Source: Candidatus Peribacter riflensis
Lineage (GTDB): Bacteria > Patescibacteriota > Gracilibacteria > Peribacterales > Peribacteraceae
Assembly: GCA_001430755.1 (NCBI GenBank)
Contig: CP013062.1
Location: 810,001 to 842,000 of the forward strand
Reading direction: 5' to 3'
DNA length: 32,000 nucleotides
Below are positions 2,625 through 16,654 of this stretch, piece after piece. Each line of letters opens with the position of its first letter. The stretch's first letter is position 1. The position numbers were made by a program, and so were the translations under genes. The notes under the pieces are model-generated. The model was not told the origin of the DNA and ran no database searches. It saw only the letters and a program-made list of their open reading frames with translations.

Positions 2625-4292
2625 CTACTGCCAGTAGTACGTTCCCTGCAGCTGTGATTCGGTGAACGGCACCCACGAGAAGCTCGTCGTGCCATCGGTC
2701 CACGTAAGAGCTCCGGCGGAGGAAACGGATCCTGCCGGCGTGATCGAGATCTGCAGTCCCGCACTCTGCGAGGCCGAAGGAATGGTGATATCGCCCCGGA
2801 GGGTGATGACGCGCGTTCCGCTCGTCACGGTTCCGACTCCTTCGGGAATCGCCGCACAGACAATGGAGGTTCCGACAACGGAACAATTCGTGCGATCGGT
2901 CGATCCGTCGGCGCCCAACGTTACATTGGCAAGCGTCACTCCGCCGCTGGTTCCCAGCGCAAAGGTGATATCGGTCACGAGCAGATCCGCGCTGCCATCG
3001 CCGCGGCCGCCCTGCAGCCTCCACTGGCCGATCGTGCGGCCGACCCCGCCCACGAGCGCGTCCTCTCCCGGACCGGCATTCGCAATGGACGTGAAGGTGG
3101 AACGCGCGGTCTCGAAGGCCTGATAGGTCTCGGTGGAGGAATCGCTGTACGAGCTGTGACTCCAATCACCGCGGCCCTCAATCGTGAACGTATCAATCTC
3201 AATATCTTCTCCGCTCTCGCCGCCCTGATCGAAACTGCGGGTGATGGCCCGCGCATAGACCGATACCTCCTCTCGGCGGGCTGCTGCAATGAGCCCGCTC
3301 GCCGAGTGGAGTGTGAAAGAAGCAGGATCGTCCGTATCGCGGGAGGCACCTCCCAGGTACCGGCCGTCAGCCGATGCGTACAGACGCACCTGATCAACGG
3401 ATGGCACGGCGGCGGTGAACGTCACCGTGATATCCTCCACGGTGAAGGGTTCCGAGTTATTGAAGATCTTGGCGGCTCCAAGAATGGGTGAAACCGTTCC
3501 AAGACGCAGAAAAGAGGGCGTCTGCGAGAAATCCGGCCCGGGATCGGTGGCGAACGAGGATGCCGAGGAGGCAGAAGAAACGGAGGAAATCGATGAGACC
3601 GATGAAGCCGACGAAGAGCGACCAGCCGAAGAGCGGGACGAGGAAGAAATGGAGGAAGAAGATGCTTCCCCGCTCTGCACCGCGCGGAGTGCCATGAGCT
3701 CCCCGCGGCTCCAGGCGAGGAACGAAACGGTGATCTGCGCTACCTCACCGCGCGTGAGCGCATGGGCAGCATCGACCCCCGGGAGCGCGATGTCCTCGGC
3801 CACTGCGGCTGCAAGGAACGGCTCATACCACTCATCGGATTGGATGTGCATCTGCGGCACATCGAATGCGAGAACGAGAATCTTCACAGCTTCGGCATAG
3901 TTCACCGTGCGCTCGGGCACGAACAGCCACTGCTCGCGCGGAACGGTGGAATCGCCATTGCCCTGCACGAAACCGAGCTCTCTGGCCAGACAAACCGGCG
4001 CTGCATACCACTGATCCGGCTGGACATCGGGGAAGCACATCTCGGCTGGGAGCGGCGATGTATAGCCAAGAACCATCATCAGCACCTTGGTGAACTCGGC
4101 ACGGTTGACGTGTTGCTCCGGGCGGAATGTGCCGTCCGGGTACCCCTGCAGTATCCCCTCTTCCGTGAGTGCGCTCACTGCCACCGCCGTCACACGATCA
4201 CGCGGGGCATCGGTGTACGGAAGATGCAACGTGTCGTAGGCAAAAGCGGTAAACGGGAACAGGCCGATGAGAAGAATGAAAATCTTGCGCAT
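2625..4292 (-). CDS. secreted cell-surface protein with three N-terminal SLH repeats, a Ser-rich linker and a beta-rich C-terminal region
   Basis: Signal peptide MRKIFILLIGLFPFTAFA. SLH-like repeats are present (for example EEGILQGYPDGTFRPEQHVNRAEFTKVL, plus two further W-Y...A repeats). A long poly-Ser linker (SSSSISSSSRSSAGRSSSASSVSSISSVSSASSASS) follows. The C-terminal half has no recognised domain. Confidence 0.8.
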   Translation of the reverse strand: MRKIFILLIGLFPFTAFAYDTLHLPYTDAPRDRVTAVAVSALTEEGILQGYPDGTFRPEQHVNRAEFTKVLMMVLGYTSPLPAEMCFPDVQPDQWYAAPVCLARELGFVQGNGDSTVPREQWLFVPERTVNYAEAVKILVLAFDVPQMHIQSDEWYEPFLAAAVAEDIALPGVDAAHALTRGEVAQITVSFLAWSRGELMALRAVQSGEASSSSISSSSRSSAGRSSSASSVSSISSVSSASSASSFATDPGPDFSQTPSFLRLGTVSPILGAAKIFNNSEPFTVEDITVTFTAAVPSVDQVRLYASADGRYLGGASRDTDDPASFTLHSASGLIAAARREEVSVYARAITRSFDQGGESGEDIEIDTFTIEGRGDWSHSSYSDSSTETYQAFETARSTFTSIANAGPGEDALVGGVGRTIGQWRLQGGRGDGSADLLVTDITFALGTSGGVTLANVTLGADGSTDRTNCSVVGTSIVCAAIPEGVGTVTSGTRVITLRGDITIPSASQSAGLQISITPAGSVSSAGALTWTDGTTSFSWVPFTESQLQGTYYWQ

Positions 4293-4336
4293 AGGGCACT
4301 ATTGTACAGAAAATGCCGCATCATGAAATAAGCGAT

Positions 4337-5131
4337 CTACTCATGGGCAGCCAGGTAACGGGTCCCGATTGGCTCGTCATCAATGAGCACGCGAGGAATG
4401 ACGTCGGCCTCATGCGCATAGGCGATGACGGATTCGATGCCGTGCCGGGCAAGCATCGTGGCAACGCGGTCTTTGCTCTTCATGCCGCCTCGCCCGTTTT
4501 TCGAGGAAGAACCATTCAAGAACCTCCGATGTTCAGTCGAGCCATAAGGAATCTCGTGAATGAGACTGTTCTCATCCTGAAGATCTCTGAGAATGCCGGG
4601 AACGCTGGTAAGAAAGAGCACCCGTCGTGCGCCGATCAGCTGTGCGACATCCCCGGCCAGCTGGTCGTTGTCGAAACGAAATTCACGCACAGCTACCGTA
4701 TCGTTCTCATTGAAAATGGGAATGCTTGGAATCTGCGAACTGAAAATCTTCTGGAGGGTATGGCTCAAATTTCTGCGCCTCAGGCGGCTATCCATATCCG
4801 AATGCGTCACGAGAATCTGGTTCGCGATGCAGCCGTGTGCCTGCAGCTCTTTCAGGTATTCCGCAAAGAGCATGGGCTGCCCGGCGGATGCATACATTTG
4901 CAGAGTGGCGAGATCTTCGTCGTCACATTTTTCAACGCCATAAATATCGCGGCCGGTGGTAGCCGCTCCTGAAGAAATAAGACCGAGACGGGCAATCTGT
5001 TTCCGAACAATGGCAAGCTGCTGAGCCACGGAAGAGACAGCCATCTTATCCAAATGATTCTCAGAGGTGGTGAGGCCATCTGAACCGATTTTCACGGCTG
5101 CAGTATCGATGGCATTTCGGTGATGATGCAT
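4337..5131 (-). CDS. proB: glutamate 5-kinase (short form without PUA domain)
   Basis: Matches ProB blocks: AVKIGSDGLT, ISSGAATTGR, IPIFNENDTVAVREFRFDNDQLAGDVAQLIGA, GRGGMKSK. Start is placed at the ATG at 5131 (MHHHRNAID...). The longer track ORF reaching 5245 would run through an intrinsic terminator. Confidence 0.85.
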   Translation of the reverse strand: MHHHRNAIDTAAVKIGSDGLTTSENHLDKMAVSSVAQQLAIVRKQIARLGLISSGAATTGRDIYGVEKCDDEDLATLQMYASAGQPMLFAEYLKELQAHGCIANQILVTHSDMDSRLRRRNLSHTLQKIFSSQIPSIPIFNENDTVAVREFRFDNDQLAGDVAQLIGARRVLFLTSVPGILRDLQDENSLIHEIPYGSTEHRRFLNGSSSKNGRGGMKSKDRVATMLARHGIESVIAYAHEADVIPRVLIDDEPIGTRYLAAHE

Positions 5132-5153
5132 GGGATGAATGAGAATGAAATAC

Positions 5154-5175
5154 AAAAAATCCGGGGGAACCCGGA
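5154..5175 (-). terminator. intrinsic terminator / candidate attenuator upstream of proB
   Basis: Minus strand reads TCCGGG-TTCC-CCCGGA followed by TTTTTT. The structure ends about 22 nt upstream of the proB ATG. Confidence 0.6.
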
Positions 5176-5219
5176 TAGCGACTTGGGGGCAGGTGCCCCG
5201 CTTCGACTCAAAAAGAGTT

Positions 5220-5291
5220 TTAAGCAGGCAGCACCTCCCCCGCACGCGGCGGAGTGAAGGAACTGCCCGGCAGAGTCACGACATGCGTCAT
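5220..5291 (-). CDS. candidate leader peptide, 23 codons: MTHVVTLPGSSFTPPRAGEVLPA
   Basis: ATG lies 9 nt downstream of a TACAGT -10 hexamer. Four Pro codons are present, including a CCG CCG pair. The ORF contains CGGGGGA, the complement of TCCCCCG in the downstream terminator. It lies between the promoter and the terminator in front of proB. Confidence 0.4.
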   Translation of the reverse strand: MTHVVTLPGSSFTPPRAGEVLPA

Positions 5292-5300
5292 GCTGGGAAC

Positions 5301-5329
5301 ACTGTACTGGAGCCAAAATCGCACGTCAA
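5301..5329 (-). promoter_or_regulatory. sigma70-like promoter TTGACG-17 nt-TACAGT
   Basis: Read on the minus strand immediately after the DAHP synthase stop codon: -35 at 5329..5324 and -10 at 5306..5301. Confidence 0.55.
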
Positions 5330-5330
5330 G

Positions 5331-6401
5331 CTAACGCGTGGCTGGCTGGCCGAAGATACGGTCGGCGGCATCTGCTGCCTGCAGAAGAAGCACTTCCGTA
5401 TCCTCCCACGAGAGACAGGGATCGGTGATGGATTGGCCATCACGGCGCATCGTCGCAGCAATATCCTGTCTCCCGCTGATGATGAAACTCTCCACCATGC
5501 AGCCCCGCACCATAGCGTAGCCGTCCAGCCCATCCTCGCGTGCCCGCAGCACCGTCTGCACCACATGCTTCTGGAGCGTGGGATCCTTGCCGCTCCCGTT
5601 ACCGCAGTTGCCGTGGCTTGCATCCACGATGATGGCGGGATCCGCAATATCGCGCTTGGGCTCCTTCATCAGCTTTGCGGCACGTGCCATGCTCTGAGGA
5701 TCGTAGTTGGGTCCCGCAGGGCTGCCACGGAGAATCAGGTGTGCGGAACGGTTCCCCCCGGTACGAACATGCCACCCGCCATGGGGAAGGTGCTGCGGGT
5801 GCTGTGTGCGCTGCACGCCGTCCACGCCGACCTCGATAGATCCCTCTACCGGATGCTTCACACCAACCGGGCAATCGTCATCCATAGAGAGCAACCCCGA
5901 TGCCACGTCGCGGTGCTGCTGGTCCGCAGAGCTGCGTGCGCCCAGCGCAACGTAGGTGAGGAGGTCGGCGAAGTACGGATCATCGCCGATGTAGAGCATT
6001 TCATCAGCCAACGGCAATTGGGTGCCCACGCGGTGCATCATCTCGCGACAGGACCAGATGCCCTTCACGATATCCTGCTCTGCGAGCGGATCGGGCTGGA
6101 TGAGGGGGCCCGGCCATCCCTCCGAGGTACGCGGCTTTTGGAGGTAACAGCGCATCACCACCTCGATACGCTCATGAATCCGTTCGCGGAATCGCGCCAG
6201 ACGGTCGGCATATTCCTGTACCGCCTCAGAGGACCAGGCAGAGCAGGGCCCGACGATCATGAGCAGGCGCGGATCGGTGCCATTGAGCACATTCCGGACA
6301 CGGGCACGGTGGTCCTTCACGCGGTGCGTGCCCGGTGAAGATGGAAATCGGTCGAGGACTTCTTCGGCACTGGGGAGTGGATTGATTCTCTGATACGTCA
6401 T
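5331..6401 (-). CDS. aroG: 3-deoxy-7-phosphoheptulonate (DAHP) synthase, class I alpha (AroF/G/H type)
   Basis: Collinear with E. coli AroG blocks: RLLMIVGPCS, KPRTSEGWPG, ALGARSSADQQHRDVASGL, CPVGVKH, HLILRG, IVDASHGN, VRGCMVESF, GQSITDPCLSWEDTE. Start is placed at the ATG at 6401 (MTYQRINPLP...). The feedback specificity implied by the symbol is not determined. Confidence 0.92.
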   Translation of the reverse strand: MTYQRINPLPSAEEVLDRFPSSPGTHRVKDHRARVRNVLNGTDPRLLMIVGPCSAWSSEAVQEYADRLARFRERIHERIEVVMRCYLQKPRTSEGWPGPLIQPDPLAEQDIVKGIWSCREMMHRVGTQLPLADEMLYIGDDPYFADLLTYVALGARSSADQQHRDVASGLLSMDDDCPVGVKHPVEGSIEVGVDGVQRTQHPQHLPHGGWHVRTGGNRSAHLILRGSPAGPNYDPQSMARAAKLMKEPKRDIADPAIIVDASHGNCGNGSGKDPTLQKHVVQTVLRAREDGLDGYAMVRGCMVESFIISGRQDIAATMRRDGQSITDPCLSWEDTEVLLLQAADAADRIFGQPATR

Positions 6402-6432
6402 GGTGAGGGTGGGAAATGAGGAAAAACAGTCA

Positions 6433-6744
6433 CTACAGACGGATGATTGCGTGGACCATCTGGCAAATAATCGCCCGGCGATCCTGAAGATCGGGCATCG
6501 CGAGGAGCGCCTCCTCCATGCCCATCGCATGCTGATTCTGCTCATGCAGACAAAGAGCGGTAGAAATCTCAGAGGGGATCTCGATGCCGCGCAGCAGGCA
6601 CCGCTGCATCAGATCCATTGCAGCGCGCCGGATGAGCTTGCGATCGGTGACGAGGTACGGACCGATACGGATATCCTGTTCCGCCTGCGCATCGGTCTGG
6701 GAGCCATCTGAGATGTGAGGCCGTTCGAGAATGGCGGTACTCAT
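6433..6744 (-). CDS. hypothetical protein (103 aa), first gene of the DAHP synthase transcription unit
   Basis: Intact ORF ending 31 nt upstream of the DAHP synthase start, and located directly downstream of the Phe/Tyr leader plus terminator. I could not recognise chorismate mutase (AroQ or AroH) signatures. Confidence 0.5.
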   Translation of the reverse strand: MSTAILERPHISDGSQTDAQAEQDIRIGPYLVTDRKLIRRAAMDLMQRCLLRGIEIPSEISTALCLHEQNQHAMGMEEALLAMPDLQDRRAIICQMVHAIIRL

Positions 6745-6766
6745 GACAGAGAATGGGAATCAAAGT

Positions 6767-6794
6767 AAAAAAACGCCTTCCGCTGGGGGAAGGC
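6767..6794 (-). terminator. intrinsic terminator of the aromatic attenuator (unit 1)
   Basis: Minus strand reads GCCTTCC-CCCAGC-GGAAGGC, then G, then TTTTTTT. It ends 22 nt upstream of the ATG at 6744 and starts 27 nt after the leader ORF stop. Confidence 0.75.
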
Positions 6795-6821
6795 TCGAAT
6801 GCATCTGAATGGCTGAGAAAA

Positions 6822-6902
6822 TTACTTCAGATCATACGGCTCCTTCCCCGCAAGATAGGGGGTAAAGAAGAAGCCGTAAAAGTAAGATTGGCGCTGAGCC
6901 AT
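6822..6902 (-). CDS. Phe/Tyr-rich leader peptide, 26 codons: MAQRQSYFYGFFFTPYLAGKEPYDLK
   Basis: Hand-translated codon by codon. It has 4 Phe and 4 Tyr, six of them in the seven codons YFYGFFF. It is preceded by TTGACT-16-TACACT with 11 nt to the ATG and followed by an intrinsic terminator. The internal GGGGAAGG is complementary to the terminator 5' arm CCTTCCCC. Confidence 0.6.
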   Translation of the reverse strand: MAQRQSYFYGFFFTPYLAGKEPYDLK

Positions 6903-6913
6903 GAGATGCGCGA

Positions 6914-6941
6914 AGTGTAGAGCAGAAGCGGCTAAAGTCAA
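6914..6941 (-). promoter_or_regulatory. sigma70-like promoter TTGACT-16 nt-TACACT
   Basis: Minus strand: -35 at 6941..6936 (overlapping the stop of the 100-aa ORF) and -10 at 6919..6914. The ATG of the leader ORF lies 11 nt downstream of the -10. Confidence 0.6.
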
Positions 6942-7240
6942 TGAGCGTGCCCGTTACTGCCACGACCATTGGCCGGGCGCATCCATTCCCACAGCTTGCG
7001 ATCCACCTCAGTGGAAACGCGATAGACACCTCCCAGCTCTCGGGAGATGCGGGCAGCAATTGCCTTCCGGGCAGAAGGACTGCGATCGAGCACGGCAATC
7101 ATCGCCGAGCGGAAATCCGGATAGGACCGACCGCCAATCGTCAGTACCCGACCATTGTGATACAACTGTGAGAGCGCTCCATCGAGCGTTTCAGAGCAAC
7201 GTACATCGCGAGTGGATACATCGGGTGGTGAAGAGATCAT
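6938..7240 (-). CDS. hypothetical protein (about 100 aa) downstream of the Phe-rich leader
   Basis: ORF MISSPPDVSTRDVRCSETLDGALSQLYHNGRVLTIGGRSYPDF... with no recognised domain. Start is uncertain: the track ORF begins at a GTG at 7348 but would then encode the perfect hairpin and overlap the leader ORF. Confidence 0.45.
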   Translation of the reverse strand: MISSPPDVSTRDVRCSETLDGALSQLYHNGRVLTIGGRSYPDFRSAMIAVLDRSPSARKAIAARISRELGGVYRVSTEVDRKLWEWMRPANGRGSNGHAH

Positions 7241-7275
7241 GAGAAATAAGGGAAATGAGAAATACACCCCTCCTT

Positions 7276-7301
7276 GCCACGCCTTTCGCGAAAGGCGTGG
7301 C
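7276..7301 (-). promoter_or_regulatory. perfect 11-bp stem-loop (candidate attenuator or terminator of unit 2)
   Basis: GCCACGCCTTT-CGCG-AAAGGCGTGGC. It is flanked 5' by GAGCCTTCCCC and 3' by AAGGAGGGG plus a U-rich tract (TGTATTTCTCATTTCCCTTATTTCTC) running up to the ATG at 7240. Confidence 0.5.
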
Positions 7302-7335
7302 ACTGCTTGGGGAAGGCTCCGTGGTCTGAAGTAAG

Positions 7336-7413
7336 TTAGCTCAGACACATCGGCTCCTGCCCCGCACTAAACGGGAAAGCGAAGAAGCCGAACGTAAACG
7401 TCTGAACGGACAT
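7336..7413 (-). CDS. Phe-rich leader peptide, 25 codons: MSVQTFTFGFFAFPFSAGQEPMCLS
   Basis: Hand-translated. Six Phe fall within ten consecutive codons. It is a paralogue of the 6822-6902 mini-ORF at both nucleotide and peptide level (GFF, P-x-x-AG-x-EP). It is preceded by TTGACA-16-TAAAGT with 10 nt to the ATG. Confidence 0.55.
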   Translation of the reverse strand: MSVQTFTFGFFAFPFSAGQEPMCLS

Positions 7414-7423
7414 GTACAGGCAC

Positions 7424-7451
7424 ACTTTACTTCGAATCGTGATGCTGTCAA
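7424..7451 (-). promoter_or_regulatory. sigma70-like promoter TTGACA-16 nt-TAAAGT
   Basis: Minus strand: consensus -35 at 7451..7446 and -10 at 7429..7424. It lies in the divergent region opposite rsmA. Confidence 0.6.
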
Positions 7452-7463
7452 TGTCAGCCCCGC

Positions 7464-8279
7464 ATGATTTCGCTCCCCGATGAGATTCGGCAATTCTGCA
7501 GGAATCATGGACTCAGGCTCAATACAGATCTGGGCCAGCACTTCCTGCTGGATGGCTCTATTTTGGATCGCATCATCGAAACGGCGCAATTGAGACCGGT
7601 CGATACGGTGGTGGAAATCGGCCCGGGCGTCGGCGTGCTGACCCGGGAGCTCCTCAAGTTTGCCGGATCCGTGATCGCCATCGAACTGGATGCACGAATG
7701 ATTCCCCTCCTCAGGGAATTCACAGGAAGAGATCCCAAACTGAACGTGGTCCAGGGCAATGCTCTGCAGATCGCCATGCCGGAGTCGCCGTACAAGGTTG
7801 TCGCGAATATTCCCTACCACATCACATCCCCGCTCCTGCGGCACCTCTTCCTCGAATCTAAAAAACCACCGACCAGTCTCACCCTGCTCATTCAGCGGGA
7901 GGTGGCCGAACGCATCTGTGATACGAAAGACGCCGGCATGCTCACGATCCTCGTGGGGCTGTTCGGCACGCCGAAGATTGTCGCCCGCGTACCGCCCGAT
8001 GCCTTTCTCCCACCGCCCAAAGTGGACTCGGCCGTCCTGCACATCGCGTGCTTTGCAGAGCCGCTGGCCGACGGCAAAACCATCGAACGGCTCTTCAAAC
8101 TCACGAAAATCGGCTTCGGCCAGAAACGGAAGATGCTCCGGAACACCCTCGGGACGTTCCAGGGAGTGGCAGAACGCCTTGCAGGGCTTGGCATTGAGCA
8201 AAGCCGACGCCCGCAGACACTTTCGGTGCAGGAATGGATCGCGCTTGCGCGCGCGTGGCCGGATGATCGGGATGGATGA
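7464..8279 (+). CDS. rsmA: 16S rRNA (adenine1518/1519-N6)-dimethyltransferase
   Basis: KsgA/RsmA family blocks LGQHFLLD and VVEIGPGVGVLT (SAM motif I), NIPYHITSP, and typical length. Confidence 0.93.
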   Translation: MISLPDEIRQFCRNHGLRLNTDLGQHFLLDGSILDRIIETAQLRPVDTVVEIGPGVGVLTRELLKFAGSVIAIELDARMIPLLREFTGRDPKLNVVQGNALQIAMPESPYKVVANIPYHITSPLLRHLFLESKKPPTSLTLLIQREVAERICDTKDAGMLTILVGLFGTPKIVARVPPDAFLPPPKVDSAVLHIACFAEPLADGKTIERLFKLTKIGFGQKRKMLRNTLGTFQGVAERLAGLGIEQSRRPQTLSVQEWIALARAWPDDRDG

Positions 8280-9871
8280 CGCCCTCCCGCTTCTCACTCA
8301 CGTTTCTCGGCTCATTCCTCCTTACAACATTTCTGCTGCAGTGGTGGCAGCGCCCCTTCTACCCTTTCGGGCTCTGGATCATCCTCACGCTCTGCCTGTG
8401 TCTGGCTGTGGTCGGTATGACCGAAGACGCCGCACGCACGGCATGCACGTTCCTCTGTGCGGTGTTTCTCGGCATCATGTGCGCCCTGTTCACCGTGTCA
8501 CGGACAATGCACGTTCCATCACCGGGCAGCGTGGAGTGGCATGCGCGGGGGCAGACGGTCAGCCTGCGGGGCATCGTCGCCGACGAGCCGGACCGTCGCC
8601 CGCTCCTCACGAAATACACTCTCGCTGCCGAAACGCTCACCGAGAGCGGCAGCCAACGTCTGATCCCGGTGGACGGCCGCGTGCTCGTAACGGACAAAGT
8701 CGGGTGGCCAGCCATGGAGTACGGCGACGAGATCATCGCGCAGGGCAGGCTCACGCTGCCGGGCACGATTAATGGTTTTCATTACGACCGCTACCTCAGC
8801 ATTGCAGGCATCACCGCAGTGATGACGCAGGCCGACGTGGAGCGAACAGGCATAAGTGGAGGGAATCCTCTCTTCAGGACACTCTTTGCCATCAAAGAAC
8901 GCTTTGAGGCCCGCCTGAACCGCCTGCTCTTCGAGCCGCACGCCTCGCTCGCCGCAGGATTGCTGACGGGCTCACGGCGCGGCATTCCAGAGCATCTGTC
9001 TGAGAGCTTCATGAGGAGCGGGCTCACGCACATCGTGGCGATTTCGGGATTCAACATTACCATCGTCATCACGCTCATCCTCGGCATGCTTTTCTGGCTG
9101 CCCCTTCGGTGGCGCCTGCTGCCGGCTGCACTCTCCATCTGCGCCTTCACGGTCTTCGTGGGGGCGAGTGCATCGGTCGTGCGCGCCGCGATTATGGGAG
9201 TCCTCGGTCTCTTCGCACTCACCGCCGGAAGGCGGTCGGATGTGCGGCTCGCCATTCTATGGACAGCCTTCGTCATGCTCATCATCAATCCGCGACACCT
9301 GTGGTACGACGCCAGTTTTCAGCTCTCGTTTGCCGCAGTCATCGGCCTGAGCGAACTCTCACCCCTGCTCAAGCCCTTCCTGATCCGTGTACCGAACATG
9401 CTGGGCATGCGCGAGGCGCTGGAAGCCACGCTCGCCGCGCAGCTCTCGGCCATGCCGCTCGGCATCCTGCTCTTTGGCAACCTCTCCCTCATCTCTCCGA
9501 TCGCCAACATCCTCGTGGCCCCTGCCATTCCGCTCGCCATGCTCATCACGACACTCGCCGCCGTTGCGAGCTTCGTCTCTTTCCCCCTCGGGCAGCTGCT
9601 GGCTTACGGCAGCTGGGCTGTTTTGCAGTGGATCATCCTCGTGGCAACCGGTCTCGCACATCTTCCCTTCGCATCCCTGCACTTCGAACAGGCGAGTATT
9701 CCGGTCATCGTGGCGTACTACATCGCGCTGGCTTGTGTGACGATCTGGTATCAAAAAAATAATCGTCGCGAAGCTGCGGGTGGCTTCGCCGGGCCCCGCA
9801 GCTGCCCGCCCGAACGTACCGTTCGGTACGGGCGGGGAGCGACACCACTCAAGGGAAAAGAGAGCTCATGA
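8276..9871 (+). CDS. comEC: ComEC/Rec2 family DNA internalisation channel protein (no metallo-beta-lactamase domain)
   Basis: Polytopic membrane protein with the competence-domain block LAAGLLTGSRRGIPEHLSESFMRSGLTHIVAISGFNITIV. An ATGA overlap joins it to the rsmA stop. The last 35 or so codons run through GC-rich hairpins and end at a TGA inside a dispersed repeat. Confidence 0.85.
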   Translation: MTPSRFSLTFLGSFLLTTFLLQWWQRPFYPFGLWIILTLCLCLAVVGMTEDAARTACTFLCAVFLGIMCALFTVSRTMHVPSPGSVEWHARGQTVSLRGIVADEPDRRPLLTKYTLAAETLTESGSQRLIPVDGRVLVTDKVGWPAMEYGDEIIAQGRLTLPGTINGFHYDRYLSIAGITAVMTQADVERTGISGGNPLFRTLFAIKERFEARLNRLLFEPHASLAAGLLTGSRRGIPEHLSESFMRSGLTHIVAISGFNITIVITLILGMLFWLPLRWRLLPAALSICAFTVFVGASASVVRAAIMGVLGLFALTAGRRSDVRLAILWTAFVMLIINPRHLWYDASFQLSFAAVIGLSELSPLLKPFLIRVPNMLGMREALEATLAAQLSAMPLGILLFGNLSLISPIANILVAPAIPLAMLITTLAAVASFVSFPLGQLLAYGSWAVLQWIILVATGLAHLPFASLHFEQASIPVIVAYYIALACVTIWYQKNNRREAAGGFAGPRSCPPERTVRYGRGATPLKGKESS

Positions 9872-9968
9872 GAGAAAAACCGGCTTGTCGGCCGTAGCCC
9901 GACTCGTCCACCATAGCTTTAGCGACGGTGGATGGGTGAAGGCTGAAGGTTTGTCTCTCATGAATTCA
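9867..9968. repeat. dispersed palindromic repeat, copy 1 (long form)
   Basis: Termini CATGAGAGAAAAACC ... GGTTTGTCTCTCATG are inverted repeats with one mismatch. It shares GAGAGAAAAACCGGCTTGTCGGCCGTAGCC and GAAGGCTGAAGGTNTGTCTCTCATGAAT(T)CA with the copy at 26620-26687. It fills the whole gap between convergent comEC and the purD-like gene. Confidence 0.8.
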
Positions 9969-11252
9969 CAGATACTCCCACGACCGGAGCTTATCCGAGT
10001 CATCCACCCACCGGTCACCGATATCTGTGCGGTAGTACATATTCGAGATCAAGATGTTCTGAATGCGCGTGTACATCTGCTTCTGCGCGTCGCGCATGGT
10101 CGTGCCTGATCCCGAGACGATGAGTGCCACTCCCTCCTGCCCGGTAATCAGCCACTCCTCGTTCTCCTGCTTCAAGTCGCCGATGTGAATGCCTTCCGTC
10201 ATCTTCTTCTTAAAGACCACGACGGCGTCTTCGGAGAACGATTCGAACGTCTTGGGATCATTGAACGGGAAGGGCGGGACCACGATGAGCGCACACACCT
10301 GGTAGCCGCGCTTCACCTTGATGCCGTTCCCTTCGCCGGCCGCCATACGCAGCAGAAGTTCCCCCATCGGCTCGGTGATGCCCTCTTCCTGCAGACAGAT
10401 GAAGGGGAACCCGAAGCGGCAGGTGAACTCGAGCGGATAGATGCCGTTACTGTTCACAATGCAGTTCACGTCGATGTACCCCACGTACCCCTCCTCCGCC
10501 AGATGCTGCTCGAAGGGACGCAGCACGGATTCAAAGATGGGGCTTCGGGCCGTCCAGAACATGCTGGTACCCATCTCACCGGTCGAGACGCCCAGCTCGC
10601 CGGGAAAGAGCTTCTTGTGCTCGAAGTTCACACACACCGGTTCCATGAATTTTTTGCCGTTGAAGAACGCCCCGGCGGCGACTTCCACTCCCGTCACCCG
10701 CCGCTGCAGCTGGAAGACCGAAATGGTATCGCTCCACGTTTCGCGGTAGGCGCCGAGCACGCGGACAACATCGCTGCCGTCGTCTTCGTTGCCGACGAAG
10801 AGCAGTTGCTTCAAATTCTGCGCATCGCCCGAAGGCTTGATCACGTAGCGGCCCGGATTCTCCTGCACGTACTTGATGCCCTCATTGAAGGAGCGGAACT
10901 CCTGATACGGAATGATGCGCACTTTGTTGCGCTTCAGCTCCTCCTGACCGAACGTGCGGTCATTTTCCAGTTTGTCCGTATAGGGCGTGCCGCCGATGCA
11001 GAGCTTGCCTTTCTTGCGCAGGGCCTGCGCTTCCTCCCCTTTCCCGATGTGGTCGAAGACGACGATATCCGCCCAGTCTACGTGCTTGTGCCAGTCCGTC
11101 ACGACATCTACAAATCCCTTGCCGACATCCTGGTAGCCCGGAGCCTCCAGGCAGAGACGAACATGATGACCTTCACGCGACACCGTCCAGGCGAGATCGG
11201 TGATTGTGCCGTCGTACGAGACGAAGAGAAATTTTTTCGACGCATCACTCAT
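9966..11252 (-). CDS. PurD-like ATP-grasp enzyme (phosphoribosylamine--glycine ligase family, divergent)
   Basis: Collinear similarity to PurD blocks: GGTPYTDKLENDRTFGQEEL, YVIKPSGD, FEHKKLFPGELGVSTGEMG, PLEFTCRFGFP, and a C-terminal RDAQKQMY...DIGDRW. No other pur genes are nearby, so the substrate is not assured. Confidence 0.75.
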   Translation of the reverse strand: MSDASKKFLFVSYDGTITDLAWTVSREGHHVRLCLEAPGYQDVGKGFVDVVTDWHKHVDWADIVVFDHIGKGEEAQALRKKGKLCIGGTPYTDKLENDRTFGQEELKRNKVRIIPYQEFRSFNEGIKYVQENPGRYVIKPSGDAQNLKQLLFVGNEDDGSDVVRVLGAYRETWSDTISVFQLQRRVTGVEVAAGAFFNGKKFMEPVCVNFEHKKLFPGELGVSTGEMGTSMFWTARSPIFESVLRPFEQHLAEEGYVGYIDVNCIVNSNGIYPLEFTCRFGFPFICLQEEGITEPMGELLLRMAAGEGNGIKVKRGYQVCALIVVPPFPFNDPKTFESFSEDAVVVFKKKMTEGIHIGDLKQENEEWLITGQEGVALIVSGSGTTMRDAQKQMYTRIQNILISNMYYRTDIGDRWVDDSDKLRSWEYL

Positions 11253-11333
11253 TACGCGCGAAGACTATGACAGTCACCCGCTCAGTGCAAGTAAACAATT
11301 GCGGGGAAAAAATCCGGCCATGAACAAGTCACC

Positions 11334-11363
11334 TTGCTGTCGAAAAGCACTCGCTTCTACAAT
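11334..11363 (+). promoter_or_regulatory. candidate promoter TTGCTG-18 nt-TACAAT
   Basis: Hexamers read directly from the sequence. The -10 lies 24 nt upstream of the ATG at 11388. Confidence 0.4.
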
Positions 11364-11387
11364 GAGAGAAATTTCCCTCACCACTCC

Positions 11388-12512
11388 ATGAGAAAATCAT
11401 TTCTGCTCACTGCCTGTGCGGTTGTGTTTGCCGTGCCGCTCATCGCTCTCGCGGCCTTCAGCCGACCGAGTGACGTGCTCTTCGGTCTCGAGAATGCGGG
11501 CGGACCGCGATCCTTCGAAATAAAGCTCTACTCCACAGTGGGTGAAGAGGAGGACCTCGTGCAGTTCTTCGTCACCGGCAATGGCATGACGGAGGGAACC
11601 ACCCCTCAGGACCTCAAGATCTCCCTTCACCTGAACGTGTCTGCAGTGACGACGGAAGGAACGATCTCGGGCGTAGGTGATGTGATCGGTTACCACGAGA
11701 AGGTCTTCTTCAGACTGAGCAACGTGAAGGTCTCTGGACCCATAATCACTGCAGGCGACCTCGCCGATATCGAGACCATGAGCCGGGAGATGCGGGGACG
11801 GTGGTTCGTGGCGGAAGCCCCGCAGACAACCGATTCCCCCTCGTGGGACGAAATGGCACGGGAACTCGACCTGCCGTTCTCAGCCGCACAGATGCGCGAA
11901 GGAATCGCCCGTGTGATCGATGCTGTATTCGCGATGGAGCACTCCCGCTTCCTCGCCGGTACTACGTACACCCTCACACTCAAGCCCAACTTCATCGTGG
12001 AAGGAATCCGGGCGGCGGAGGGGTGGCTCACGGAAGTGAACCAGGACAGTGCGGCAAACATGCCGGAGACCGGCGATGCCGATTTGCAGGAGTTCGAAGA
12101 CCTCTTTCGCCAGAACCTGACCGTCCGCCTGAAGGTGGATATGTCCGGTGACGGGGCATTCCGCTTCGCACGCTCCTACGTGACGCTATCACTCCCCGAC
12201 GAAGCGGTCGCTTTGTCGCTCGAAGCCTCCATGCAACAGCGTCCGGCACCGGTCTACGTGCAGATTCCCGCGAACGCCACGCCCGTGGAGGAACTGCTGG
12301 GCTTCTCGCTGATTCCCGAAGGTCTCTTCGACGGAGGATCGGACATGCCAGAGACCATCGACGACGGAGCTTGGCCGGACCTGTGGCCGGAGAACGAGTG
12401 GAACCCCTGCGACATGATCACGGACGAGGTGGACCTGCGCGACGCGCGCCTGGGGGATTGCCCGGTCACGCGGGAATCGCGCCGCAGTCTGCGCGAGCGC
12501 CTACAGGACTAG
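11388..12512 (+). CDS. secreted hypothetical protein (374 aa)
   Basis: Start is placed at MRKSFLLTACAVVFAVPLIALAAF, a signal peptide. No recognised domain in the mature part. Confidence 0.55.
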   Translation: MRKSFLLTACAVVFAVPLIALAAFSRPSDVLFGLENAGGPRSFEIKLYSTVGEEEDLVQFFVTGNGMTEGTTPQDLKISLHLNVSAVTTEGTISGVGDVIGYHEKVFFRLSNVKVSGPIITAGDLADIETMSREMRGRWFVAEAPQTTDSPSWDEMARELDLPFSAAQMREGIARVIDAVFAMEHSRFLAGTTYTLTLKPNFIVEGIRAAEGWLTEVNQDSAANMPETGDADLQEFEDLFRQNLTVRLKVDMSGDGAFRFARSYVTLSLPDEAVALSLEASMQQRPAPVYVQIPANATPVEELLGFSLIPEGLFDGGSDMPETIDDGAWPDLWPENEWNPCDMITDEVDLRDARLGDCPVTRESRRSLRERLQD

Positions 12513-12634
12513 TCTCCTCAGCCGAGCTTCACCGCAAGAGTCGAAGAAGAGTGAGTGTGCATGACCGCTCAATGCAGAAGCGTGTGACGCGGGAAGCGGA
12601 AGTGTGACAGGCGTTTTGCAGATATACTGGCACC

Positions 12635-14425
12635 ATGTTCGCAATCAATCGTCCCGCCTGGTGGCAGAGAGGAGCCATCACCCTGCTGTTCATCCTCCCC
12701 TTTCTCGCTTTCGGTGCATCGGTTCTGCAGGGGTACGCCCCCATCGATGATCTCTTCCTCGTTGTGCGGAATCTCGCGACGCGCGGACCGACACTGGATC
12801 ATCTGAAGGCCGCCTTCACGACATTCGATCCCGAGCTCTACATCCCGGCAACGCTCGTCAGCTTTCAATTGAACTATCTGGTCTCGGGGCTCCATCCATG
12901 GAGTTATCACCTCGTGAATGTGCTCCTGCACGGAATCAATGCCGTCCTCCTGTTTCTGATCCTCAAAAAAATCACCGCCGCGCCTCGCGCCTCCCTCTTT
13001 GCGGCAGCTCTCTTCGCCGTGCATCCGCTCACTACCGAAGCGGTCGTCTGGATCACCGCACGCAAAGACCTGCTCTCCACCTTCTTTGCGCTCGCCTCCA
13101 CCCTCGCATTCCTGCGGCAATCGCGCCGAGGGATGATCTTCGGCCTCTTCCTGTTCCTCTGCGCGCTCCTCGCCAAGGTCTCCGTCGCCCCGCTCCCTCT
13201 TGTCTTCCCGCTCCTCCTCACGGTGCAGGGTAAAAAATGGACCCGAAACACCGTCCTTTCCGTCATCCCCTTCCTCCTGCTCTCTGCCATGTTCGTCGCT
13301 GTCGCCCTCCTCGGCAAAGAGCGCATCGTCGAGACAGCAGGCCTGACAGAAACCCTTCTCCTCGCCCCATGGAGTATCTTCTTCCTGCTCGGCAAATTCC
13401 TCTACCCGAAGAGCTTAAGCCCCCTCTACGAAGTGAGTGACCCGATCACCCTCACACATCCCTGGATCGTCGCATCCCTCGTCGGATTCATCGGCCTCAT
13501 CGGCATCTTCCTTGTCCTCCATAGCTTTCGCGGAGGAGGAGGTTTCTTCCGGAAAAAATCCCTACGCCCCCTGCCCGGCGAAGCTCCGCACACCGGAGCG
13601 AAGTCGGGTACACCCTACACCCTTTCCCTCGTCACCTTCCTCATCCTGTTCTCCCCTGCGCTCCTCACCTTCCGCAAGGCAGGAACGGTCTTCCTCGCCT
13701 CCGACCGCTACCTCTACCTGCCGAGTGTGGGCCTGCTGCTCTTGATTGCGCTGCTCCTGAGAGGAATCGGCTCCCACTGGCCGCTCCCGAAACAGGTGAT
13801 TGCGGGAGTGAGCGGCTTTGTCATCGCCTTCCTCTGCCTGCTCTCTGTCAAGCAGACGAAGCTGTGGGATTCTGCGGACGCGCTCTTCACCCACGCACTC
13901 GCCGTGACACCGCGCTCCGTCGCCGCGCGCACGGCCCTCGCACAGACCAAGCTCGATGCCGAGAATCCGCAGGAAGCTTTTGCAATCCTGAAAGAAGGCC
14001 TCAGGCAGGGTGATGACGTGCGTCTGCACCTGATGGCGGGGCAGATCTACGCCCGCGTGGGACAGGTGACCGATGCCCTCGGAGAATTCAGGAAAGTGCA
14101 GGAGATGGAACCGGGCAATGCCGATGCGTGGTTCTCGATCGGATCGATTGAGGAACAGACAGGGCAGAGCGATGCGGCGCTGCAGAACTACCGCACCGCG
14201 GTACGCTTAGACCCCTCGGATGTTCCGGCACACGTGGGCATCGGACGGATTCTCGCTGCCAGAGATGACCTTGCCGGAGCGGAGCAGGCCTTCCGCACCG
14301 CGCTCTCGTGGAACCCCAATGCGATGGATGCCCACCGCGGCCTCGCCCCCGTGCTGGCGAAGACCGGCAGAGTGGATGAAGCCCAGAAACACCTTGAACT
14401 CGGCTTGGAACTTTCGAAGCCGTAA
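12635..14425 (+). CDS. TMTC-like polytopic membrane protein with C-terminal TPR repeats (GT-C/PMT-like glycosyltransferase fold suspected)
   Basis: The N-terminal region has about 10 hydrophobic segments, including YHLVNVLLHGINAVLLFLIL, typical of the TMTC/DUF1736 type. The C-terminus carries several TPR units (AWFSIGSIEEQTGQSDAALQNYRTAVRLDP, AHVGIGRILAARDDLAGAEQAFRTALSWNP). Confidence 0.8.
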   Translation: MFAINRPAWWQRGAITLLFILPFLAFGASVLQGYAPIDDLFLVVRNLATRGPTLDHLKAAFTTFDPELYIPATLVSFQLNYLVSGLHPWSYHLVNVLLHGINAVLLFLILKKITAAPRASLFAAALFAVHPLTTEAVVWITARKDLLSTFFALASTLAFLRQSRRGMIFGLFLFLCALLAKVSVAPLPLVFPLLLTVQGKKWTRNTVLSVIPFLLLSAMFVAVALLGKERIVETAGLTETLLLAPWSIFFLLGKFLYPKSLSPLYEVSDPITLTHPWIVASLVGFIGLIGIFLVLHSFRGGGGFFRKKSLRPLPGEAPHTGAKSGTPYTLSLVTFLILFSPALLTFRKAGTVFLASDRYLYLPSVGLLLLIALLLRGIGSHWPLPKQVIAGVSGFVIAFLCLLSVKQTKLWDSADALFTHALAVTPRSVAARTALAQTKLDAENPQEAFAILKEGLRQGDDVRLHLMAGQIYARVGQVTDALGEFRKVQEMEPGNADAWFSIGSIEEQTGQSDAALQNYRTAVRLDPSDVPAHVGIGRILAARDDLAGAEQAFRTALSWNPNAMDAHRGLAPVLAKTGRVDEAQKHLELGLELSKP

Positions 14426-14620
14426 AACACAAACAAAACAGAGCAACCAACAACACACAGACACAAAAAATGGAGGTCCGCCGCCACGGGGGGTGAAGGG
14501 GAAGGCCCCGCATTGCAGAAGAGTAATACGCGCCGACGAGGCGGATCCGAAACCCTGGAGGATCCGACGAGGAGGCACGGGGCCGGGCTGAGGGGAGTTG
14601 GCGGCGGAGAGCTTTCTTTG

Positions 14621-14653
14621 CTTCTTTCTTTGTCTGGCTGACAAAGAAAGAAG
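14621..14653. other. perfect 14-bp stem-loop upstream of the rlmI-like gene
   Basis: CTTCTTTCTTTGTC-TGGCT-GACAAAGAAAGAAG. No U-run follows on either strand. It lies 45 nt upstream of the ATG at 14699. Confidence 0.6.
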
Positions 14654-14698
14654 AGAACTATTCAAGGAAAAACAAACAAATGAAGTACAATCCCACCG

Positions 14699-15877
14699 AT
14701 GAAGTACCCCATCCTCACGCTCAAACCCGACTCCGAAGTCCACCTGAGAAATCGCCACCACGCGATCTTCCGGAGTGCCATAGACCGCCTGCCACAGGCG
14801 GAGGATGGCGACATCGTGGAGGTGAGGAACAGCAGGGGGGATTTTCTCTGCTTCGCCCACTGGAATGCCAAGGCCTACATCTGCGGCCGCGCCATCGCGT
14901 TCGAGAAAGGCGATCCCCTCACACACATCCGCTCGCTCATGGAACAGGCAGTGCGATTGCGCACAGCTCTCTTCGAAAAAGAAGAAACGACCTGCTTCCG
15001 TCTCATCAATGCCGAAGGGGACGCACTGCCAGGGCTCATCGTCGATCAGTACGGCGACGTACTGGTGATCCAGCTCACGACACTGGGATTCGACCGCTCA
15101 CGTGACTGGGTTATGGATCAGCTGAAGACGCTCGTGCAGCCGAAGGCGATCTTCGAAAAGTCCACGGGACCCGCGCGCAAGAAAGAGGGATTGGAGGAGC
15201 GGGAAGGCTGGGTGCACGGCAAGGTGGATGGCACCATCGAGGTGAAGGAGCGTGGACTCACCTACCTGATCACCCTCGAGGGCAGCCAGAAGACCGGCCT
15301 CTTCTTGGACCAACGTGAAATGCGCTCCCTCGTGCGGCAGACGGCCCATGGACGCACGGTCTTAGACTGCTGCAGTTACGTGGGAGGCTTCTCGGTCAAT
15401 GCGCTCGCCGGCGGCGCGCTCACTTCAGATGCAGTGGATTACGACAGCGCGGCCCTCGCACGCGCCCGCGAGCATGCCACGCTCAATGGCATTCCGGCAG
15501 ATCGCCTGCAGATCTTCAGTGAAGATGTGTTCAATTTCCTGCGGCGAAAGTCTTTGCCGCATCCGTATGACTTCATCATTTTGGATCCTCCCGCCTTCGC
15601 CAAGCGGAGTGCTGATTTGGAACCGGCGAAGAAGGCCTACACCGATTTGAACCGCATGGCGCTGCAGGCGCTCCCCCCGGGCGGTATCCTCCTCACCTGC
15701 TCCTGCAGCTACCAGGTGAACCCGGAGCTCTTTCAGACGCTCGTCTTCCACGCCGCACGTCAGGCCAAGCGCAACGTGAAAATCCTGAGCCGGCATCGCC
15801 AGGCCATGGATCACCCCGTGAACCTCTACCATCCTGAAGGCGACTACCTCAAGTCTCTTCTCCTGTGGGTGGAGTGA
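14699..15877 (+). CDS. rlmI: class I SAM-dependent rRNA methyltransferase, RlmI family (PUA plus MTase)
   Basis: Blocks VDQYGDVLVIQ, TGLFLDQREMR, VLDCCSYVGGFSVNA and ILDPPAFAK, with length typical for 23S rRNA m5C1962 methyltransferase-like proteins. Confidence 0.85.
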   Translation: MKYPILTLKPDSEVHLRNRHHAIFRSAIDRLPQAEDGDIVEVRNSRGDFLCFAHWNAKAYICGRAIAFEKGDPLTHIRSLMEQAVRLRTALFEKEETTCFRLINAEGDALPGLIVDQYGDVLVIQLTTLGFDRSRDWVMDQLKTLVQPKAIFEKSTGPARKKEGLEEREGWVHGKVDGTIEVKERGLTYLITLEGSQKTGLFLDQREMRSLVRQTAHGRTVLDCCSYVGGFSVNALAGGALTSDAVDYDSAALARAREHATLNGIPADRLQIFSEDVFNFLRRKSLPHPYDFIILDPPAFAKRSADLEPAKKAYTDLNRMALQALPPGGILLTCSCSYQVNPELFQTLVFHAARQAKRNVKILSRHRQAMDHPVNLYHPEGDYLKSLLLWVE

Positions 15878-16122: not shown

Positions 16123-16170
16123 TGGCGAAAGTATATCCGATCAACGAAAATCGTCGCTGGGCGCAGCTTT

Positions 16171-16198
16171 AAAAAAAAGGCGCATCTTTCGACGCGCC
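16171..16198 (-). terminator. intrinsic terminator after the 117-aa secreted protein gene
   Basis: Minus strand reads GGCGC-GTCGAAAGAT-GCGCC followed by TTTTTTTT. Confidence 0.65.
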
Positions 16199-16230
16199 TC
16201 TCTCTCTCCGTGAAATGCGTATTTCAAAGC

Positions 16231-16584: not shown

Positions 16585-16637
16585 ATATTTGTGGGAAGGA
16601 GTTAGGAGTCTTTTATGCTCCTTCTTCTACTTATCTT

Positions 16638-16654
16638 TGTAAAGTGAGTTTACA
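16638..16654. promoter_or_regulatory. perfect inverted repeat TGTAAA-N5-TTTACA (candidate HxlR operator)
   Basis: It abuts the -35 of the hxlR-type gene promoter in the divergent intergenic region. Confidence 0.45.

Follow-up and report, generated by a model that had tools for sequence, protein, structure and literature searches.

Do leader peptides control transcription of the 3-deoxy-D-arabino-heptulosonate-7-phosphate (DAHP) synthase gene in Candidatus Peribacter riflensis, a groundwater bacterium of the Peregrinibacteria, and which amino acids would these leaders sense? The question is raised by a stretch of 32,000 nucleotides (nt) of contig CP013062.1 (assembly GCA_001430755.1, positions 810,001 to 842,000 of the forward strand), here called the window, with positions counted from its first letter. 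On its minus strand, two units, each consisting of a promoter, a short open reading frame (ORF) rich in aromatic codons and a hairpin, lie in front of the DAHP synthase gene. An earlier reading, made from the sequence only, had interpreted them as duplicated attenuators with a mutually exclusive antiterminator, one responding to Phe and the other to Phe and Tyr. Comparison with related genomes and RNA folding support this proposal, and we consider it probable (at roughly 0.85) that both units are classical ribosome-mediated, that is, leader-peptide, transcription attenuators.

Along the minus strand, the locus is arranged in the order unit 2, ORF100, unit 1, ORF103, DAHP synthase, unit 3, a proB-like gene and the gene for an SLH-domain protein. 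The Phe unit (unit 2) occupies 7451..7253, the Phe+Tyr unit (unit 1) 6941..6767, and a third, paralogous unit 5329..5154. The sequence-only reading gave no antiterminator for unit 2 and overlooked unit 3 before proB. Unit 2 and its immediate neighbor contain the following elements:

7424..7451, minus strand: unit 2 promoter, with the −35 hexamer TTGACA (7451..7446), a 16-nt spacer and the −10 hexamer TAAAGT (7429..7424); 10/12 consensus matches.
7336..7413, minus strand: leader ORF 2 (Phe class), MSVQTFTFGFFAFPFSAGQEPMCLS plus TAA; 25 codons, with 6 Phe in codons 6–15.
7371..7395, minus strand: unit 2 region 1, ACGUUCGGCUUCUUCGCUUUCCCGU, the stretch with the Phe codons; by RNAfold and pair counts, it forms the 5′ side of helix 1:2.
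7347..7365, minus strand: unit 2 region 2, the G-rich GCGGGGCAGGAGCCGAUGU; its partner is region 1 or, as antiterminator, region 3.
7324..7346, minus strand: unit 2 stop-codon hairpin, GUCUGA (7346..7341) with UCAGAC (7329..7324), TAA in the loop (RNAalifold).
7309..7316, minus strand: unit 2 region 3, CCUUCCCC; it serves both as target of region 2 and as 5′ arm of the stem at the base of the terminator.
7275..7302, minus strand: unit 2 palindromic hairpin in the terminator loop, 12 bp by RNAfold, with a perfect 11-bp core (7301..7276).
7253..7273, minus strand: unit 2 region 4 and U tract, GGAGGGG (7273..7267) followed by the weak U-rich UGUAUUUCUCAUUU (7266..7253).
7464..8279, plus strand: rsmA, divergent from unit 2.

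The ATG of leader ORF 2 (7413) lies 10 nt past the −10 hexamer, so that the mini-ORF would be leaderless or nearly so. Since rsmA is on the opposite strand, the unit 2 promoter falls within a 50-nt divergent intergenic region. The antiterminator pairs GGGGCAGG with CCUUCCCC (7/8 pairs), while the terminator has an outer stem, CCUUCC(CC) (7316..7309) with GGAGGG(G) (7273..7267), that encloses the 11-bp hairpin. The promoter, the ATG, the 25-codon ORF and the six Phe in ten codons are all found where the sequence-only reading had placed them. Its terminator needed to be redrawn: the 11-bp hairpin at 7301..7276 is present, but the U-rich tract follows the larger outer stem, and the hairpin is not the terminator core. 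The inner hairpin is missing from the unit-2 terminators at seven related loci (L003, L007, L011, L022, L035, L052 and L063; the L numbers are our own handles), all of which keep the outer stem and the U tract, and we therefore regard it as an insertion. Hairpins of the unit 2 type are found in L006 and L036, and the terminators of unit 1 in L007 and L036 have a similar insert. The orthologous U tracts are mostly clearer than that of unit 2 itself (UUUUAUUUUUUU, UUUUUUUG).

Short perfect palindromes centred on TTCGCGAA were also seen in the terminator loops of differing units and genomes (window 7275..7302, minus strand; L006 4989-5010; the Phe and F/Y leaders of L036; unit 1 of L007), and inserts that keep the frame occur within leader ORFs as well: unit 3 of L006 has a hairpin of 30 nt, and the Phe leader of L042 an insert. 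These palindromes and inserts could be small mobile palindromic elements or the products of local duplication.

The elements of unit 1 are arranged in the same way:

6914..6941, minus strand: unit 1 promoter, with the −35 hexamer TTGACT overlapping the ORF100 stop codon, a 16-nt spacer and the −10 hexamer TACACT; kept in most orthologs.
6822..6902, minus strand: leader ORF 1 (Phe+Tyr class), MAQRQSYFYGFFFTPYLAGKEPYDLK plus TAA; 26 codons, with 4 Phe and 4 Tyr.
6858..6878, minus strand: unit 1 region 1, UACGGCUUCUUCUUUACCCCC, encoding Y-G-F-F-F-T-P.
6835..6851, minus strand: unit 1 region 2, GCGGGGAAGGAGCCGUA.
6803..6832, minus strand: unit 1 stop-codon hairpin, AUCUGA (6832..6827) with UCAGAU (6808..6803).
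6767..6794, minus strand: unit 1 terminator, GCCUUCC (region 3), loop CCCAGC, GGAAGGC (region 4, 6781..6775), G, and U7 (6773..6767).

Here, the ATG (6902) is 11 nt past the −10 hexamer. The region-1 codons Y-G-F-F-F-T-P (6878..6858) pair with GCGGGGAAGGAGCCGUA (6851..6835), and the leader-internal GGGGAAGG (6849..6842) is the exact complement of CCTTCCCC / CCUUCCCC (6793..6786), the 5′ arm of the terminator. CCTTCCCC also occurs in unit 2, at 7316..7309. The terminator stem has 7 bp, five of them G-C, followed by U7, and ends 22 nt before the ATG of ORF103 (6744). The sequence-only reading was accurate throughout for this unit, including its promoter, ORF, codon counts, terminator, the 22-nt distance and the antiterminator segment complementary to the terminator arm.

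Region 2 of both units (6842..6832 and 7356..7348, minus strand) holds AAGGAG or CAGGAG with an AUG 4 nt further, and resembles a Shine-Dalgarno (SD) site. In the Phe class this AUG encodes Met22, in frame; in the Phe+Tyr class it belongs to an AUG-AUC-UGA that is out of frame. The resemblance is probably a by-product of the pairing constraints.

Relatives of the locus were reached through DAHP synthase homologues (53–85% identity) and their syntenic contigs. A DNA pattern derived from the conserved core gave 50 matches and yielded 11 further loci from metagenome-assembled genomes of Peribacteria/Peregrinibacteria in the GTDB species set; L045 proved to be the L012 contig again. About three-quarters of the matches to this pattern lie in GC-rich genomes outside Peregrinibacteria/Peribacteria and were taken as chance uninspected. 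The match in L040 (Patescibacteria) was rejected as chance, as it runs antisense inside a 196-aa ORF. A protein-pattern scan of GTDB genomes with DAHP synthase found nothing, and nhmmer, run over the window and the loci gathered by then, returned known units only. From ≈17 Peribacteria/Peregrinibacteria genomes and metagenome contigs, the resulting collection comprises 30 distinct aromatic leaders, together with 11 of the unit 3 type. The 30 aromatic leaders lie in syntenic loci that begin with rsmA, followed by the leaders, and end with the SLH gene.

The start codon (ATG; GTG in L064), the stop codon, the frame and the aromatic run are kept across all 30 leaders. Among the length differences checked, the additional 3 nt of the F/Y class and of L013 preserve the frame, as do the longer inserts in L006 unit 3 and L042, and the indels are multiples of three. 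Promoter hexamers are conserved among orthologous leaders, with spacers that vary, and the ATG follows the −10 hexamer at a distance of 9–12 nt. A terminator, with a stem of 4–10 bp located 0–2 nt from a U tract, is present in 28/30. Nucleotide identity to the window leaders is 70–93%, in most cases 80–93%. In the same genomes, amino-acid identity is 61–82% for rsmA, 53–85% for DAHP synthase, 36–48% for ORF103 and 29–79% for the proB-like gene product, and the housekeeping proteins of the relatives are 61–87% identical to those of the window. Judged by these identities, no other part of the locus is conserved as well as the leaders. Conservation of the aromatic runs and hairpin arms in related genomes, with some compensatory changes, had been named in the sequence-only reading as a check on its proposal, and this is what the 30 leaders display.

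The regulatory codons differ between leaders in a systematic manner. The 14 leaders of the Phe class contain 4–6 F, 0–2 Y and no W among 25 codons, and the 14 of the Phe+Tyr class 2–4 F, 1–4 Y and 0–1 W among 23–26. In the single-leader loci L008 and L013, codons for all three aromatic amino acids, Phe, Tyr and Trp, are present (MTHSGIFFGAYWYPFSAGKVLLRLS and MSRQTFCFGAFWFSYFTEGKELTRLSN); their leaders are followed by DAHP synthase and an aminotransferase in L008, and by DAHP synthase, a prephenate dehydrogenase/prephenate dehydratase (PDH/PDT) fusion and dehydroquinate (DHQ) synthase in L013. Aromatic positions swap among F, Y and W yet stay aromatic. A Phe-class leader directly precedes prephenate dehydratase in L011/L012 and L037 (PF00800, 1.7e-36 in L037), and in L052 a Phe+Tyr leader directly precedes DAHP synthase. 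Gene order thus indicates that codon content tracks cargo. By the same comparison, unit 2 appears to descend from a leader of pheA (prephenate dehydratase), and unit 1 to be that of the enzyme of the common pathway.

At the G run the selective constraint has a different target. The peptide at this position differs in L013 (T-E-G-K-E-L) and L008 (A-G-K-V-L), and the RNA GGGGAAGG is retained in both. Furthermore, Ala-Gly is always encoded by GCG GGG, without synonymous variation. Thus, the constraint at the G run is on the RNA and not on the peptide.

How unusual would such units be by chance? Within the window, the aromatic enrichment has a binomial probability of 9e-3 in unit 2 and 4.5e-4 in unit 1, given a background F+Y+W of 7.5%, and 14 of the 310 mini-ORFs starting with ATG have at least 6 aromatic residues. 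A scan for consensus promoters in 4000..9000 gave 4 sites (2.0 ± 1.4 expected), three of which sit 9–11 nt before the ATGs of mini-ORFs. The two best combinations of a hairpin and a T run in the same interval are the terminators of units 1 and 3, which are also the sole strong GC stems directly before at least five T in 4000..29000. Nothing comparable to the promoter and terminator sites of the leader units was found in 9001..29000, where the 24 sites of the hairpin and T-run scan (17 ± 5 expected) were weak and lacked a clean T run; ordinary gene ends in this interval seem seldom to carry intrinsic terminators. Since the enrichment within the window is moderate, the case rests on the comparison between genomes, and it is this conservation that we regard, from the aligned sequences, as the decisive evidence.

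The leaders of the three units fold well below shuffled controls (z = −3.7, −4.3 and −3.5). Pairing was counted in the alignment of 30 sequences after removal of the inner hairpin inserts, with the partner columns slid by 1–3 positions as controls. Helix 1:2 is paired in 91.8% of cells, compared to 41–67% when slid. Three of its pairs change on both sides, including U-A against A-U between the classes (columns 26/70: AU 14, UA 13). Helix 2:3 is paired in 96.7% of cells (49–81% slid), with compensatory pairs at columns 64/121 (GC 26, AU 2, the latter in L037 and L054) and 61/124 (AU 21, CG 1, GC 1), and RNAalifold placed this helix in the consensus unprompted. The stop-codon hairpin covaries between the classes, G-C (7) against A-U (4), and is paired in 96.7% of cells. 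A set of 12 sequences gave the same picture as the set of 30. In 30/30 sequences, region 2 is complementary to precisely the 5′ arm of the terminator. Both units of the window thus have mutually exclusive terminator and antiterminator helices, the alternative states for which folding had been suggested as a check.

The effect of a ribosome on this choice was simulated by masking the 5′ part of the mRNA up to 12 nt past the first A-site base, folding the rest down to the U tract and recording the pairing probability of the terminator stem; this is an equilibrium, not a kinetic, model. The terminator probability fell to 0.00 in 30/30 leaders when the A site lay within the aromatic cluster (codons ≈5–14), and only then. 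With the ribosome at the stop codon it was 0.28–1.0, reaching at least 0.8 in 23/30, and without a ribosome it was at least 0.75 in 14/30. The span that disrupts the terminator of window unit 1 is exactly Y-G-F-F-F-T; in window unit 2 it consists of T, F, F, A and F between codons 5 and 13.

From these elements we infer the transcription start sites, the translation of the mini-ORFs, the termination and its dependence on amino-acid supply. A sigma-70-type promoter would start the transcript a few nt before the ATG of the 25- or 26-codon mini-ORF. The Phe codons (unit 2) or Phe and Tyr codons (unit 1) would double as region 1, which pairs with the G-rich region 2 (GCGGGG-N-AGGAGCC); alternatively, region 2 would pair with the C/U-rich region 3 (CCUUCCCC), the 5′ arm of the terminator. 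A shortage of Phe-tRNA or Tyr-tRNA would stall the ribosome in the aromatic run, where it would cover region 1 and free region 2, which would then take up region 3 and block the 3:4 terminator, so that RNA polymerase reads on into ORF100 (unit 2) or into ORF103 and DAHP synthase (unit 1). With plentiful charged tRNA, the ribosome would reach the stop codon and cover region 2, the 3:4 helix would form, and transcription would end. In an untranslated leader, helix 1:2 would form, again allowing 3:4 to form and transcription to end. Transcripts from the unit 2 promoter would have to pass both attenuators before reaching DAHP synthase.

A number of observations weigh against this interpretation. 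Judged from the window alone, the mini-ORFs are only moderately enriched in aromatic residues. The elements barely vary, so that the covariation they show is modest, and the shuffle control is not readable as a probability. Window unit 2 has a weak U tract (UGUAUUUCUC), and with the ribosome at its stop codon the simulated terminator formed with a probability of only ≈0.5. The F/Y leaders of L037 and L054 are without a convincing terminator stem, and the untranslated equilibrium fold prefers the antiterminator in units 1 and 2 of L007, unit 2 of L003, the Phe leaders of L063 and L064, and the FY leaders of L037 and L054. The genomic setting raises a further difficulty. According to the genome paper, P. 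riflensis has very few amino-acid biosynthesis genes (PMC4736985), and among the 120 best homologues found for a DHQ synthase of Peregrinibacteria there was no aroB from its 1.25-Mb genome, an absence that is suggestive but short of proof. These two observations put the physiological point of regulating DAHP synthase in P. riflensis in question. Furthermore, DAHP synthase has been lost at the locus in L022, and both DAHP synthase and proB in L036 and L046, where the leaders, terminators and small ORFs are intact.

The same genomic observations would be expected if the attenuator mechanism were ancestral, and in P. riflensis either a relic or reused for ORF100 and ORF103 by aromatic tRNA charging. 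On that view most of the aromatic pathway has disappeared, with pheA replaced and aroB apparently absent, and the units would have ceased to regulate it. The replacement of pheA by ORF100 points in this direction, as do the intact leaders of the three loci without DAHP synthase and/or proB, and the adjoining housekeeping genes evolve far more slowly than DAHP synthase and proB. We nevertheless consider this explanation unlikely. Decay is difficult to reconcile with leaders that are the most conserved DNA at the locus, the DAHP synthase scores above the aroFGH equivalog cut-off and has kept its motifs, and L052 has its F/Y leader directly before DAHP synthase. Reuse would employ the same mechanism and is therefore no true competitor of leader-peptide attenuation.

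The two remaining explanations concern what the hairpins and the mini-ORFs do. The hairpins might act post-transcriptionally, on translation or RNA stability, or as constitutive terminators, as could be suspected from the weak U tract of unit 2 and from the unit 3 terminator, which ribosome position does not disturb in silico; with no canonical anti-SD sequence in this organism (PMC10783764), unusual translational control is also conceivable. However, the unit 1 terminator is textbook-like (7 bp, U7), region 2 is directed at the terminator 5′ arm in every one of the 30 leaders, and the starts of ORF100 and ORF103 take no part in the conserved helices, which makes such a role very improbable. 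Still less credible, to the point of being nearly negligible, is that the mini-ORFs encode micropeptides or arrest peptides in which G-F-F...P..A-G-x-E-P acts as protein. The motif G..F.P..AG.E is indeed common to all three unit types, but TEGKEL in L013 and AGKVL in L008 change the peptide while keeping the G run of the RNA and its partners, the Ala-Gly codons GCG GGG show no synonymous variation, and the variable positions swap F, Y and W, staying aromatic. Attenuation by leader peptides remains our preferred interpretation of both units.

Downstream of the leaders, the minus strand carries the following genes:

6938..7240, minus strand: ORF100, a small protein, in the position of pheA in L011 and L037.
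6433..6744, minus strand: ORF103, the first gene after the Phe+Tyr leader; a Peribacteria-restricted family.
5331..6401, minus strand: DAHP synthase, class I-alpha (aroFGH); PF00793 at 4e-40, TIGR00034 at 247.7 bits (cut-off 173.2).
4337..5131, minus strand: proB-like (glutamate-5-kinase-like) gene; TIGR01027 at 161 bits, below the cut-off of 186.

Cargo from the cognate pathway is thus found after unit 1 and ORF103 (DAHP synthase) and after the Phe leader of L011/L037 (pheA); window unit 2 precedes ORF100, and no enzyme follows in L022, L036 and L046. By our own reading of its translation, the DAHP synthase of the window retains the KPRT, GPCS, SHxN, VES and ITD motifs. ORF100 has orthologs in 7 genomes, with a divergence of 0.36/0.31/0.56 at codon positions 1/2/3. 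For ORF103, a word-indexed search finds only the protein itself and an exhaustive search 17 cluster representatives, and the divergence at codon positions 3/1/2 is 0.58/0.41/0.30. Divergence in both is highest at the third codon position and lowest at the second, which marks ORF100 and ORF103 as real genes. Neither ORF100 nor ORF103 matched any known family in Pfam, NCBIfam or PDB sequences, and single-sequence structure models of both were too poor for use. Their starts lie 13–22 nt past the U tracts, outside the conserved helices.

Several origins for the small proteins were considered and rejected. ORF100 has no similarity to PDT, of which it might have been a remnant. A tandem duplication of the whole module would make ORF100 and ORF103 paralogues, for which hhalign gave a probability of 0.5%, and comparison of ORF103 to four AroQ chorismate mutase sequences gave 0.3%. 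One of the 17 cluster representatives, the 491-aa protein P0253, has the architecture PDT-ACT-ACT with an ORF103-like domain at the C-terminus, a putative fusion that may be a gene-calling artefact. From its domain order, the fusion possibly links ORF103 to aromatic amino-acid metabolism, or Phe biosynthesis.

L022, L036 and L046 also keep two further families of small ORFs, one of 82–83 aa and one of 101–105 aa that starts with METIQSS or MDSIDF. At L011 (Peregrinibacteria CG1_02_54_53), identity to P. riflensis is 29% for the proB-like gene product and 57% for DAHP synthase, compared to 77% for rsmA, 84% for uvrD and 67% for SLH. As a sequence comparison, this faster divergence of the proB-like gene and DAHP synthase suggests relaxed constraint or gene replacement. 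A gene of the Trp-repressor family (PF01371, 104 aa; L001 18660..18974), ≈2.3 kb beyond window position 1, adjoins rpsO, a few kb from the aromatic locus.

P. riflensis has been classed as “SD-scarce”, with a 16S rRNA without the CCUCC anti-SD sequence (PMC10783764), a classification into which the leaderless or near-leaderless mini-ORFs fit. The pyrimidine-rich TCATTTCCC occurs at 7250..7258 and 6411..6419 (minus strand), 10–18 nt before the ATGs of ORF100 and DAHP synthase, where there is no SD sequence. As a translation signal it was rejected, since it is not enriched in the window (8 found, 8.1 expected). Elsewhere, a near-consensus promoter, TTGACA-18-AATAAT, is located at 22667..22696 (plus strand; with the ATG, to 22704), and the ATG is only 5 nt past the −10 hexamer. 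By its sequence, this looks like a leaderless protein-coding gene, in agreement with the 9–12-nt spacing of the leaders.

The third unit has the same layout:

5301..5329, minus strand: unit 3 promoter, TTGACG-17-TACAGT.
5220..5291, minus strand: unit 3 mini-ORF, MTHVVTLPGSSFTPPRAGEVLPA; conserved T-P-P.
5154..5176, minus strand: unit 3 terminator, AUCCGGG-UUCC-CCCGGAU and a U run, before the proB-like gene.

Its mini-ORF shares the scaffold G....P..AG.E and the GCGGGG-N-AGG core with units 1 and 2, and the unit is strongly conserved in 11 genomes. The terminator was unaffected by any simulated ribosome position in the window and in 9/10 orthologous leaders; the variant in L064 alone has the canonical 2:3 / 3:4 arrangement. 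Region 2 of unit 3 pairs strongly with the 3′ arm of an adjacent hairpin, GGGGC-ACCU-GCCCC. An antiterminator directed at the 3′ arm of the terminator was tried as an alternative, and candidate pairings were found in only about half of the orthologs, leaving no conserved competitor of the terminator.

What would these leaders mean for the biology of Peribacteria? The mechanism is a textbook one, and the main result is a sound annotation and an evolutionary curiosity rather than a new principle. One RNA scaffold has been duplicated and re-coded into Phe, Phe+Tyr, Phe+Tyr+Trp and Pro-containing variants, a natural experiment in regulatory evolution, and the scaffold is more conserved than the enzymes it would control and outlasts their loss. 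Because the leaders survive where enzymes have been lost, ORF100 and ORF103 are candidates for a role in the aromatic amino-acid physiology of symbiotic bacteria. If our interpretation is true, these uncultured ultra-small bacteria couple transcription to translation, use intrinsic terminators, and translate (near-)leaderless mini-ORFs despite having no canonical SD system. More tentatively, and with the odds against it, the attenuators may have outlived the pathways in genome-reduced, probably auxotrophic Peribacteria, and may now sense the charging of aromatic tRNA (in unit 3 possibly proline tRNA) and switch on lineage-specific small proteins, namely those of the ORF100, ORF103 and 101–105-aa families, perhaps also the SLH gene. 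Such repurposed sensors would provide the starvation signal of a host-dependent cell instead of biosynthetic feedback, and, together with the P0253 fusion, would mark ORF103 as an unrecognised component of aromatic amino-acid metabolism or sensing.

With respect to known systems, Rfam placed no leader family (Phe_leader, Trp_leader, His_leader, Leu_leader, Thr_leader, etc.) at gathering score in the window, where one tRNA was the only match. The scan for known leader families suggested in the sequence-only reading thus came back empty, even at E values up to 10, where the four matches in 5000..7600 were at chance level and to unrelated eukaryotic or archaeal RNAs. Nor was there an Rfam match to a T-box; a conserved translated ORF is present instead. 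Accordingly, we regard the leaders as a new sequence family of known mechanism. A full-text literature search, judged by title or abstract, found no earlier report of leader-peptide attenuation in the Candidate Phyla Radiation (CPR)/Patescibacteria. If the mechanism is as proposed, these would be, as far as that search shows, the first leader-peptide attenuators reported in the CPR.

The closest functional resemblances are to E. coli pheL-pheA and to aroR-aroF of Corynebacterium glutamicum. With pheL-pheA (Rfam Phe_leader), the units share a short leader ORF with a Phe run, alternative 1:2, 2:3 and 3:4 helices and an intrinsic terminator; the Phe-class leaders of L011 and L037 likewise precede prephenate dehydratase. 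They differ in that the Phe codons of Peribacter are interspersed (F.F.FF.F.F) and do not form an uninterrupted run, that the mini-ORF is (near-)leaderless in a host without canonical SD/anti-SD pairing, that there is an extra conserved hairpin at the stop codon, and that the cargo of unit 2 is a 100-aa protein, not pheA. In C. glutamicum, a Phe-Tyr-Phe leader controls the aroR-aroF DAHP synthase operon via ribosome stalling, as described in PMC11802643, which cites Neshat 2014. In view of this precedent, the sequence-only reading overstated its case in presenting attenuation at the first shikimate enzyme as special. The likeness to unit 1, a mixed Phe/Tyr leader before a DAHP synthase operon, is drawn from that brief description and spans unrelated phyla; as far as the description goes, unit 1 differs in having 4 Phe and 4 Tyr, in the presence of ORF103 between leader and DAHP synthase and in the tandem Phe-only attenuator upstream. 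A Tyr-tRNA-sensing attenuator has also been discussed for enterobacterial aroF (PMC2659441). The E. coli trpL and the enterobacterial his, leu, thr and ilv leaders follow the same logic: both a fully translated and an untranslated leader lead to termination, and a ribosome stalled in region 1 to antitermination. Unlike these leaders, those of Peribacteria reuse a single scaffold, built on the GCGGGG-N-AGG core, in three paralogues with exchanged regulatory codons, and have retained it after enzyme loss.

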